IMG/VR virus record: IMGVR_UViG_3300032173_000006
Coordinates: 27,629 to 59,628 of that record
Source of the DNA: a virus
Direction: 5' to 3' (one strand)
DNA length: 32,000 nucleotides
Position numbers and translations under genes: made by a program. Shown piece by piece: positions 30,873 to 31,505 of the stretch; position 1 is the first letter of the stretch, and each line of letters opens with the position of its first letter. The notes beneath the pieces were generated by a model. It saw only the letters and a program-made list of their open reading frames with translations, did not search any database and was not told where the DNA came from.

Positions 30873-30888
30873 TGGTGCACGAGGAGAG
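30873..30888 (-). pseudogene. 3' remnant of a disrupted tRNA-Leu gene (T-stem 3' strand + acceptor 3' strand + A + CCA)
   Basis: The minus strand reads CTCTC CTCGTGC A CCA immediately after the CCA of tRNA-Leu(CAG). CTCGTGC is the exact complement of the acceptor 5' strand GCACGAG of the fragment at 31499-31505. Confidence 0.55.
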
Positions 30889-30980
30889 TGGTGCTCGGGG
30901 AGGGACTCGAACCCTCATGGTTTTTAGGCCGCGGCGTTCTGAGCGCCGTGCGTCTACCTTTTTGTTTCCGCCACCCGAGC
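30889..30980 (-). tRNA. tRNA-Leu(CAG), class II, with expanded A-rich D-loop and weak variable arm
   Basis: Reverse complement: GCTCGGG TG GCG GAAACAAAAAGGTAGA CGC A CGGCG CTCAGAA CGCCG CGGCCTAAAAACCAT GAGGG TTCGAGT CCCTC CCCGAGC A CCA. The acceptor, anticodon and T arms are perfect. The D-loop is 4 nt longer than in its neighbours and the variable arm pairs poorly. Its first 27 nt are shared with the 3' end of the HNH ORF. Confidence 0.7.
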
Positions 30981-31451
30981 ACTGTTCTTCGTGCCCCAAG
31001 TCTCTGTTTGGGAATGGCAGTTGGGACAAAGGAACCGCAGGTTGCTCCTGCGGTTATCTGTGTGGTCACCATTCCTGTGATCAACTTGGAGCACCAATTC
31101 CTTTCCTTGCCATTCAGGCCCCACCCCGCACTCTTTACAAGTGTAGGACATGCCAGACATGATCATTGACTGACGTAGTCTGAAGATCTTCTCTTTTCGG
31201 TCCCCTCGCCTTCCCCGAACTAGAACCTTCTTCCAGTGCAGTTTCTCAGCACCGCCTTTGTGCCTTGCCCCACAGTTGCTGCCCCTACCAAGAAAGTGGG
31301 AAGTGTCGATCCCGTAGTGCCGAATCAAAGCACCCATATATCCAATGTTGCCACCTCCCAGCTTTCTACCGAACGACCTCACCACGGCGGACACACTGGT
31401 TGATTTCCACACCGCTCCCTGAACAGCCTCTCGAGTGTATTTGGTTCTCAT
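30954..31451 (-). CDS. HNH homing endonuclease
   Basis: CKECGVGPEWQGKELVLQVDHRNGDHTDNRRSNLRFLCPNCHSQ is a classic Cys-flanked H-N-H motif. The N-terminal part (SVSAVVRSFGRKLGGGNIGYMGALIRHYGIDTSHFLG) matches the common N-terminal module of phage HNH enzymes. The start is set at the ATG at 31451, because the upstream 21 codons of the track ORF are translations of tRNA sequence. Confidence 0.85.
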   Translation of the reverse strand: MRTKYTREAVQGAVWKSTSVSAVVRSFGRKLGGGNIGYMGALIRHYGIDTSHFLGRGSNCGARHKGGAEKLHWKKVLVRGRRGDRKEKIFRLRQSMIMSGMSYTCKECGVGPEWQGKELVLQVDHRNGDHTDNRRSNLRFLCPNCHSQTETWGTKNSARVAETKR

Positions 31452-31465
31452 GGTATACACTCTAG
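31430..31465 (-). promoter_or_regulatory. hairpin enclosing the HNH start codon
   Basis: On the minus strand, CTAGAGTGTAT (31465-31455) pairs with ATACACTCGAG (31440-30), 10 of 11 bp. The 14-nt loop ACCAUGAGAACCAA contains the AUG (31451-31449). No SD precedes this AUG. Confidence 0.4.
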
Positions 31466-31472
31466 CACACCA

Positions 31473-31505
31473 ACCAGTGCGTCTACCAAGTTCCGCCACT
31501 CGTGC
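31473..31505 (-). pseudogene. 5' fragment (positions 1 to ~31) of a disrupted class II tRNA-Leu gene
   Basis: The minus strand reads GCACGAG TG GCG GAACTTGGTAGA CGC A CTGGT, nearly identical in layout to the neighbouring tRNA-Leu(GAG) (CCACGGA TG GCG GAACTTGGCAGA CGC G CTGGC). tRNA similarity then stops and the HNH ORF follows. Confidence 0.6.

Follow-up and report, generated by a model that had tools for sequence, protein, structure and literature searches.

Endonuclease genes of the HNH and GIY-YIG types are an established component of the transfer RNA (tRNA) gene clusters of phages, and they are suspected to take part in the turnover of tRNA repertoires (PMC6409571, PMC5966550, PMC13096335 and PMC2330249). 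Here we describe such a gene within a tRNA-Leu array of a viral genome. The DNA analysed is a stretch of 32,000 nucleotides (nt) of the metagenomic virus record IMGVR_UViG_3300032173_000006 (positions 27,629 to 59,628), hereafter called the window. In it, an open reading frame (ORF) for a predicted HNH endonuclease and a tRNA-Leu(CAG)-like gene lie together between the two ends of a broken tRNA-Leu gene. In the literature searched, no description was found of an endonuclease and a complete tRNA nested in a broken tRNA of the same isotype.

The system that lends itself best to comparison is SegB of phage T4, a free-standing GIY-YIG homing endonuclease encoded in the T4 tRNA gene cluster (PMC13096335 and PMC2330249). 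According to PMC2330249, SegB cleaves inside the tRNA genes of phages that lack segB, a hairpin is found at its start codon, and maturation of tRNA-Arg is proposed to cut the segB mRNA between the last codon and the stop codon. During segmental amplification, SegB yields microhomology junctions that join its own 3' end to a tRNA 5' end, and it shows no isotype preference (PMC13096335). The locus in the window resembles this system in several ways. Both genes sit in phage tRNA arrays that are, or appear to be, co-transcribed, both genes are missing from the homologous arrays of relatives, both have a hairpin at the start codon, and in both cases maturation of a downstream tRNA can be proposed to cut the mRNA near the end of the ORF. 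SegB cleaves the tRNA genes of relatives and drags neighbouring tRNA genes along, an activity that is only predicted for the window. The two systems differ in fold (GIY-YIG for SegB, HNH in the window) and in position, as segB lies between intact tRNA genes whereas the HNH gene lies inside a tRNA gene of which both ends remain. Furthermore, the last nine codons of the window's ORF (eight sense codons and the stop), and not the stop alone, fall within the tRNA, and its HNH family is strongly tied to tRNA-Leu.

Two other endonuclease systems are of interest. The F-Tfl endonuclease ORFs of phage T5 also belong to a phage tRNA gene cluster, and their expression is suggested to be limited by tRNA-precursor processing; a nested tRNA arrangement does not appear in the description given in PMC2330249. 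The likeness to the window lies in the location of endonuclease ORFs in a phage tRNA cluster. The F-Tfl enzymes are reportedly of the HNH type. MobE of phage Aeh1, as cited in PMC2330249, is an endonuclease whose gene is inserted inside another gene. As in the window, a free-standing endonuclease gene is thus found within a gene and not between genes. The MobE insertion is said to split nrdA of Aeh1 into two halves that still form a working enzyme. In contrast, the two halves in the window cannot rebuild a tRNA, and a putative replacement copy is carried instead.

tRNA genes are also entered by elements of quite different types. Group I introns occur in the anticodon loops of bacterial and plastid tRNAs, for example in tRNA-Leu(UAA), which is split between U34 and A35, and some of them carry homing-endonuclease ORFs. 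The insertion in the window likewise adjoins the anticodon, and relatives of its HNH protein are found in such introns (loci L088, L105, L116 and L169). Unlike these introns, the window shows no ribozyme, 28 nt of the tRNA are missing, and the host gene is destroyed and not spliced; any function would have to be supplied by the second, complete tRNA inside the insert. Integrase-borne islands and prophages enter tRNA genes while carrying a copy of the 3' part of the tRNA. As is proposed for the window, a tRNA gene is targeted, the tRNA is restored by the sequence brought in, and a displaced fragment is left as a scar. In contrast to such islands, the insert in the window is without an integrase, brings a whole tRNA, leaves both a 5' and a 3' remnant and deletes part of its target.

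A broken tRNA-Leu(CAG) gene and its intact counterpart

Read on the minus strand, positions 31796-30664 of the window form a compact tRNA-Leu array, in the order tRNA-Leu(GAG), a 33-nt tRNA-Leu 5' fragment, the HNH ORF, the tRNA-Leu(CAG)-like gene, a 16-nt 3' fragment, tRNA-Leu(CAA) and tRNA-Leu(UAA). All minus-strand coordinates of the initial annotation of this DNA were found to be correct on re-reading. A single T (31506) separates the tRNA-Leu(GAG) from the 5' fragment, GCACGAGTGGCGGAACTTGGTAGACGCACTGGT (31505-31473), which spans tRNA positions 1 to about 32, from the acceptor strand GCACGAG over U8 and the D-arm to the anticodon stem, of which it has the 5' strand. The 3' fragment, CTCTCCTCGTGCACCA (30888-30873), consists of the T-stem 3' strand CTCTC, the acceptor strand CTCGTGC, A73 and CCA (positions 61-76), and its CTCGTGC is the exact complement of the GCACGAG of the 5' fragment. 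The insert of 584 base pairs (bp) enclosed by the two fragments holds nothing but the HNH ORF and the tRNA; no integrase is encoded in it.

The identity of the broken gene was obtained from a related phage. A degenerate pattern made of the two acceptor strands only retrieved 17 intact tRNAs in viral contigs and led to the contig IMGVR_UViG_3300037851_000570 (hereafter L151), which has an array of tRNA-Leu GAG, CAG, CAA and UAA without an HNH gene. No HNH gene of the window's family is present within the 12.8 kilobases (kb) of L151. L021, a locus whose structural protein shares 78% identity with that of the window, is on this 202-kb contig too, and about 5 kb of L151 are syntenic with the source contig of the window, at amino-acid identities of 50-88%. 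In L151 the first three tRNA-Leu genes are spaced by single bases, and the intact tRNA-Leu(CAG) (9897-9986) reads GCACGAG..CUCAGAA..GAGAGUUCGACCCUCUC CUCGUGC ACCA.

The two arrays were aligned segment-wise, as a global MAFFT alignment misplaced the right half. The 5' fragment of the window is identical to the tRNA-Leu(CAG) of L151 at 29 of the first 31 bases, and similarity ends after position 31-32. It resumes at position 61, where the 16-nt 3' fragment together with the next base (T, 30872) is identical at 17 of 17 positions, compared to 73-86% identity for the neighbouring tRNAs of the two arrays. As judged from this alignment, the matches of the fragments to the ends of a tRNA-Leu are far beyond chance. 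Because the intact tRNA-Leu(CAG) of L151 matches both fragments, we conclude from the sequence comparison that the broken resident gene is a tRNA-Leu(CAG), of which positions ~33-60 are replaced by the 584-bp insert with a divergent tRNA of the same anticodon. The initial annotation had proposed that a homing endonuclease gene invaded a tRNA-Leu gene, and had suggested a search for relatives with an intact target and no HNH gene. L151 is such a relative: where the window has the broken gene, its array has an intact tRNA-Leu(CAG). The comparison thus favours insertion into a tRNA gene that was once intact, and the isoacceptor of the target can now be named more specifically than had been guessed.

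The HNH ORF runs from the ATG at 31451 to the TAG at 30956-30954 (minus strand) and encodes 165 amino acids. Over residues 2-160, the protein matches PHROG 10822 'HNH endonuclease' at full length with an E value of 2.6e-45. The Pfam HNH_3 model gives 23.3 bits for this protein, slightly under its cut-off of 24.8; in a 14-member family alignment HNH_3 is matched by 13 members and Pfam HNH by 11. All residues invariant in this 14-sequence alignment are kept in the window protein (C105, C108, H125, N137, C142, N144, C145, Q148 and T151). The catalytic and zinc-binding residues, among them two CxxC pairs, the histidine of DH and the asparagines, are invariant; the local sequence is DH..N..CPNCH. 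The ORF, already read as an HNH endonuclease in the initial annotation, is thus a full-length gene for a predicted HNH (beta-beta-alpha-metal) endonuclease. No solved relative was found by sequence (best PDB match at E 0.14) and none of the NCBIfam models names the family. The public record has no called gene at this ORF, and an exact look-up of the protein was empty.

Regarding the start of the ORF, the ATG is preceded by a 21-nt spacer (31472-31452), and no Shine-Dalgarno sequence is found upstream of it. By eye, these 21 nt resemble those of the related locus L001. The AUG (31451-31449) lies in the 14-nt loop of a hairpin (31433..31462) with a perfect 8-bp stem (31462-31455 / 31440-31433) and a minimum free energy of -13.5 kcal/mol. 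The start-codon hairpin claimed in the initial annotation therefore exists, but it is statistically unexceptional: its energy is ordinary for the composition (z -0.72), and 43 of 200 shuffled sequences fold as well.

The inner tRNA-Leu(CAG)-like gene (30980-30889, with encoded CCA) has the acceptor stem GCUCGGG/CCCGAGC and the anticodon loop CUCAGAA, and the last nine HNH codons, eight sense codons and the stop, lie within it. Its stems are fully paired (acceptor 7/7, D-stem 3/3, anticodon stem 5/5, T-stem 5/5), and the conserved bases U8, A14, G18G19, U33, the T-loop UUCGA and A73 are present. Compared to the tRNA-Leu(CAG) of L151, it shows 74% identity. Read off the alignment, the two tRNAs differ by six compensatory pair changes (3:70, 6:67, 28:42, 29:41, 30:40 and 52:62), with zero broken pairs. 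Compensatory changes that leave every pair intact are the mark of a tRNA shaped by selection. Because of these six changes, the inner tRNA is not a recent copy, made within this genome, of its flanks.

The HNH family in phage and bacterial tRNA arrays

A set of 162 phage and metagenome loci was collected by protein and family-alignment searches. tRNA genes are found within the fetched flanks of 146 of them; 775 share the strand of the HNH gene and 35 lie on the opposite one. The ORF stops inside the next tRNA in 48 loci, and in 34 more this tRNA starts within 30 nt; the usual stop positions within the tRNA are U8-A9-G10, a TAG or TAA of the D-loop, and even the anticodon. Since the ORF stop falls inside the next tRNA in 48 loci, the overlap of ORF and tRNA in the window is a habit of the family. 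Of the tRNAs that come next after the ORF 29% are tRNA-Leu, and of those preceding it 53%, compared to 19% of all tRNAs in these loci.

In the case of the closest HNH homologue, L248 (53% identity), the junction between ORF and tRNA is identical to that of the window, AAGAA..GCTCGGGTGG, with the acceptor strand of the tRNA read as Ala-Arg-Val. This suggests that the HNH ORF and the tRNA are inherited together. Two cultured phages show similar pairs: gp141 of Citrobacter phage Michonne stops 1 nt before a tRNA-Leu, and orf168 of Pseudomonas phage PPSC2 overlaps a tRNA-Leu(UAG).

The association extends to bacterial chromosomes. More than 580 relatives were detected in bacterial genomes, and the best 80 of them (L248-L327, HNH identity 39-53%) underlie the following figures. 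The next tRNA on the same strand is a tRNA-Leu in 79 of these 80 loci, and in 76 it overlaps the ORF or starts within 72 nt of it. In Actinomycetes (Rhodococcus, Micromonospora, Streptosporangium, Nocardioides and others) it is mostly tRNA-Leu(UAG) that follows the HNH gene, and in Acidobacteriota a tRNA-Leu of GAG or CAG anticodon. An upstream tRNA fragment is usually absent at the bacterial loci.

The nested layout itself, consisting of a 5' fragment, the HNH gene, a complete tRNA and a matching 3' fragment, recurs in four other contigs, L069, L099, L119 and L133. The inner tRNA is a tRNA-Leu(UAA) in both L099 and L069. In L119 it is a tRNA-Tyr, and the outer tRNA is missing just part of the anticodon loop. 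In the case of L133, the inner tRNA is a tRNA-Gln and the outer one has a U1-A72 pair and a G73 discriminator, as is typical of tRNA-Gln. In a nearest-neighbour comparison with 1189 tRNAs, outer and inner isotype are identical in 4 of 5 nested cases. A further locus, L066, has a split tRNA without an inner tRNA. The left breakpoints of the Leu-type loci cluster at positions 31-34. The right breakpoints vary: the break is at 39 in L119, L099 has it in the variable region, L133 at about 50 and the window at 61. Altogether, the initial suggestion that the HNH gene travels with a tRNA-Leu is supported by the L248 junction, the pairs in Michonne and PPSC2, the bacterial loci and the recurring nests.

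Split tRNAs were screened for by a split acceptor pair with a T-loop before the 3' strand. This gave 10 loci. About 8 of them looked genuine when inspected, and they comprise intron, nested and other split types; 200 permutations gave 1.45 loci on average and 7 at most. A first, looser screen was no better than its permutation null, and it was the T-loop requirement that brought specificity.

In four loci the HNH gene is intron-borne, and the intron interrupts, at or beside the anticodon, a tRNA that is otherwise complete, namely a tRNA-Leu(UAA), interrupted as U^AA, in L088, L105 and L169, and a tRNA-Lys in L116. Group I ribozyme matches were obtained for L169 (46.4 bits, E 2.4e-9) and L116 (34.4 bits); L088 and L105 have the canonical exon ends CUU/../AAAA and no match to the group I model. 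In another type of locus (L004/L005, L015, L009/L010/L012 and L102), a partial copy of the 5' end of the ORF's downstream tRNA lies upstream of the HNH start. Such fragments match their own downstream tRNA base for base over GGAAGCGTG in L009 and GGAAGTGTG in L012. These copies could stem from a recent duplication, from gene conversion or from selection for pairing.

Some further RNA genes and remnants were observed next to members of the family. After the HNH ORF of L071, at about 1950-2055, lies a decaying tRNA-Tyr-like gene with a collapsed D-arm that was missed by the detector; the UAA in its anticodon loop is the stop of the ORF. Remnants of a tRNA D-loop and 3' end, likewise missed, follow the HNH ORF in L001 (3440-3520). 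In phage tRNA arrays near HNH relatives, L060 (577-711) has a Y RNA-like (YrlA) match of 54.8 bits, below the gathering score of 69, and L069 (387-733) a transfer-messenger RNA match of 61.7 bits.

Origin of the nested arrangement

Four elements are established by these comparisons of sequence: the HNH-less intact allele, the habitat of the family in tRNA arrays, the conserved unit of ORF and tRNA, and the recurring nested layout. On their basis we favour, with a probability of roughly 0.75, the reading that an HNH cassette with its own tRNA-Leu(CAG) was inserted by homing into the resident tRNA-Leu(CAG) and killed this gene. The ancestral array would have been tRNA-Leu GAG, CAG, CAA, UAA, as in L151, and a 584-bp cassette would have entered its CAG gene. 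This cassette would comprise a short 5' untranslated region (UTR), the free-standing HNH gene and the divergent tRNA-Leu(CAG) into which the ORF runs. Because the cassette replaces tRNA positions ~33-60, the resident gene would be dead, with its two ends surviving as the flanks of the cassette.

Mechanistically, the endonuclease might cut intact tRNA-Leu genes near the anticodon loop, where related members sit as intron ORFs, and the break would be repaired by copying the unit of fragment, HNH gene and tRNA from a donor. The left junction could form through homology in the conserved 5' half of the tRNA, with GTGGCGGAA and GGTAGACGCAC common to the fragment and the inner tRNA. The right junction would require an illegitimate or microhomology join after variable resection, and the linked tRNA would compensate for the gene destroyed. 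The whole array is probably one transcript. By analogy with SegB, processing of the inner tRNA by RNase P at 30980/30981, where this tRNA begins, would cost the mRNA its final nine codons, of which eight are sense codons and one is the stop. Each transcript could then serve either synthesis of the nuclease or maturation of the tRNA, and this competition would hold nuclease levels down.

Several observations weigh against this reading. The right junction, GAGCACCA/CTCTCC.., is without clear microhomology, and the right join is a conjecture and the weakest step of the mechanism. Simple homologous repair would yield hybrid tRNAs, and not a complete tRNA with a 16-nt remnant. A donor was not found: no HNH homologue closer than 53% identity was recovered, a metagenome scan gave none above 45%, and a search by acceptor pair for the source of the inner tRNA gave 23 tRNAs, none of them close and none with CAG. 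Furthermore, L151 is the single HNH-less ortholog found; it is moderately distant, and its Leu array lies at a different genomic position, adjoining a 20-tRNA block. It was also the sole match of a search with the leader sequence of the array. An exact search in viral contigs with 29 nt of the 5' fragment, a search of bacterial genomes for the junction pattern of tRNA-Leu(GAG) with the following gene, and a search for relatives through the neighbouring ThiF-family gene gave no match. Of 41 relatives found through the structural protein, the 15 closest were scanned. About 6 kb around that gene are free of tRNAs in all of them, which made them unsuitable as empty sites but shows, for these 15, that the tRNA region is accessory.

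The function of the inner tRNA is also in doubt. Its D-loop has 16 nt instead of the usual 12 and its variable arm a stem of 2 bp only, its Rfam tRNA score of 24.7 bits is below the gathering score of 29, and ARAGORN makes no call even at relaxed thresholds. When the D-loop is trimmed from 16 to 12 nt, ARAGORN calls a tRNA-Leu(cag) at the same relaxed threshold. Recognition by leucyl-tRNA synthetase depends on D-loop geometry, and an expanded D-loop could thus matter. Judged by these features, the inner tRNA may be non-functional, which would weaken the logic of a replacement. The description of this gene as a complete tRNA-Leu(CAG) in the initial annotation consequently holds for the four paired stems and the CUCAGAA loop, but not for the covariance score or for detection of the untrimmed gene. 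The same annotation had remarked that the expansion of the D-loop brings its TAG into frame as the stop of the HNH ORF, and this argument on the frame is correct: were the loop 12 nt long, the ORF would continue for another 35 codons, to the D-loop TAG of tRNA-Leu(CAA).

Other explanations were weighed against homing. A local rearrangement, by duplication, deletion or template switching among the Leu tRNAs with the HNH gene merely resident, would fit the repeat-rich nature of tRNA arrays, in which slippage and recombination occur readily. The inner tRNA is a 74% identical homologue of the broken one, no donor was found, and SegB-type rearrangements inside one genome are documented (PMC13096335). 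On the other hand, the inner tRNA has diverged from its flanks, by six compensatory pair changes, about as much as the orthologous tRNAs of the two phages have from each other, and the junction of ORF and tRNA is the same in a homologue of 53% identity. The nested layout moreover recurs only around the window's HNH family, with constant left and variable right breakpoints, and even in a rearrangement a break made by the endonuclease would still be the likeliest trigger. We therefore regard a rearrangement without homing as unlikely. An assembly artefact, in the form of a chimeric join of similar tRNA sequences, has to be considered in a metagenome, where repeated tRNA genes can mislead short-read assemblers. 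Mis-assembly is disfavoured because two records from different pipelines, L016 (an ENA k141 contig of 143 kb) and L017 (a Logan contig of 14 kb), agree with the window at every one of 13,110 bases, although they possibly share reads. In addition, the junctions do not lie at long repeats, and the nested architecture is found in four unrelated contigs. The chance of an artefact is accordingly very small.

The flanking fragments might instead have been kept for a role at the RNA level, either as a long-range, acceptor-like helix of GCACGAG with CUCGUGC that delimits the HNH-tRNA transcript or makes it more stable, or as a tRNA-like processing cap at the 5' side. The 7-bp complementarity is perfect, the upstream fragments of L009 and L012 equal their own downstream tRNAs, and D-arm-like sequences persist upstream of diverged HNH genes (L001, L002 and L248). 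A recent origin or gene conversion explains these identities as well, though, and fragments are seen at every stage of decay across the loci, while most bacterial loci are without one. A 7-bp helix spanning 620 nt would also be weak; such a role appears quite improbable. Finally, the outer tRNA could be a functional intron-containing gene, with the 584 bp a group I or other intron whose splicing restores the tRNA-Leu. The intron-borne family members, two of them with group I matches, and the left breakpoint at about 32, next to the canonical 34/35 intron site, speak for it. But positions ~33-60 (28 nt) are missing compared to L151, and with them the remainder of the anticodon loop, the anticodon stem's 3' strand, the variable arm, the 5' strand of the T-stem and the T-loop, so that the joined flanks cannot yield a tRNA. 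There is also no room for a ribozyme, as 21 nt precede the ATG and the ORF runs into the inner tRNA. No Intron_gpI match was obtained at E up to 1 across 29500-32000, or at E up to 10 in the re-scanned stretches of inner tRNA/3' fragment and 5' fragment/UTR. With 28 nt of tRNA missing and no ribozyme found, a spliceable intron was excluded, its probability being next to nil. Integrase-mediated insertion was rejected as well, since the insert has no integrase and the flanks are two different tRNA ends and not a direct repeat.

Insertion by homing would represent a sharper outcome than those of the known tRNA-cluster endonucleases, as the nuclease gene would kill a tRNA gene and bring in a foreign allele of the same isoacceptor, with the clean state before the event surviving in L151. 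More tentatively, and with rather more doubt than confidence, the HNH gene and tRNA may form one mobile unit of intron-borne descent that spreads by destroying tRNA genes of the same isotype while providing its own copy, that is widespread and whose expression depends on a contest between translation and the cleavage of the overlapping tRNA by RNase P. This wider proposal would cover the phage arrays and also the chromosomes of Actinomycetes, Acidobacteriota and other bacteria with their HNH/tRNA-Leu pair, a pairing that hints at a larger association. In the literature searched, we found no description of a continuum from intron-borne through nested to abutting forms in one HNH family, nor of the bacterial HNH/tRNA-Leu pairing. 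If general, such a process would account for the orphan fragments of tRNAs and the odd tRNA-like genes that phage arrays contain, and for the frequent extension of endonuclease ORFs into the next tRNA. It would also explain the turnover of phage tRNA repertoires, on which host tRNA-cleaving defences select (PMC13096335). On the practical side, standard pipelines missed both the HNH ORF, which is uncalled in the public record, and the inner tRNA, which ARAGORN passes over.

Surroundings of the array

Upstream of the array, on the minus strand, a consensus scan detected a putative Sigma-70-like promoter, TTGACA-17-GATACT (31796-31768; 10 of 12 matches). It is preceded by a terminator-like hairpin (31846-31829) that closes the preceding ThiF-family gene, and it is followed by a leader of about 170 nt (31767-31597) with 76% identity to the leader of the L151 array. 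The remaining tRNA genes of the array, all on the minus strand, were called by ARAGORN. The first gene, tRNA-Leu(GAG) (31596-31507), scores 43.1 bits with the Rfam tRNA model and is 86% identical to its L151 counterpart; the values are 54.7 bits and 84% for tRNA-Leu(CAA) (30867-30777), and 45.4 bits and 73% for tRNA-Leu(UAA), the last gene (30749-30664).

A separate tRNA gene lies on the plus strand at 29942-30020 (Rfam 44.8 bits), with a 9-nt anticodon loop, AGUAAUGAC, and the ARAGORN label Ile(AAU). Its acceptor pair GCCCGCG/CGTGGGC and its T-arm are identical to those of the outer broken tRNA around the HNH gene in L069. It may represent a target, scarred or variant, or else a tRNA with an expanded loop. 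The region from about 29940 to 31800, which includes this odd tRNA, a 119-amino-acid ORF and the Leu array, is missing in the closest relative by structural protein, L018 (90% identity), where about 475 bp (6971-7446) are found in its place. Just past the high end of the window, L016 has a second, unrelated HNH endonuclease gene (13526-14110; Pfam HNH, 35 bits), which comes after the ThiF-family gene ending at window position 31848.

As a whole, the window is part of a tailed-phage genome: it encodes a terminase large subunit at 3328-5184, and its long plus-strand ORFs fit a structural module. A weak match to an ATP-dependent ligase domain is found at 221-1630. Among the long plus-strand ORFs, the one at 8176-11595 encodes a protein of 1139 amino acids with an inorganic pyrophosphatase domain ('InPase', 110.7 bits).

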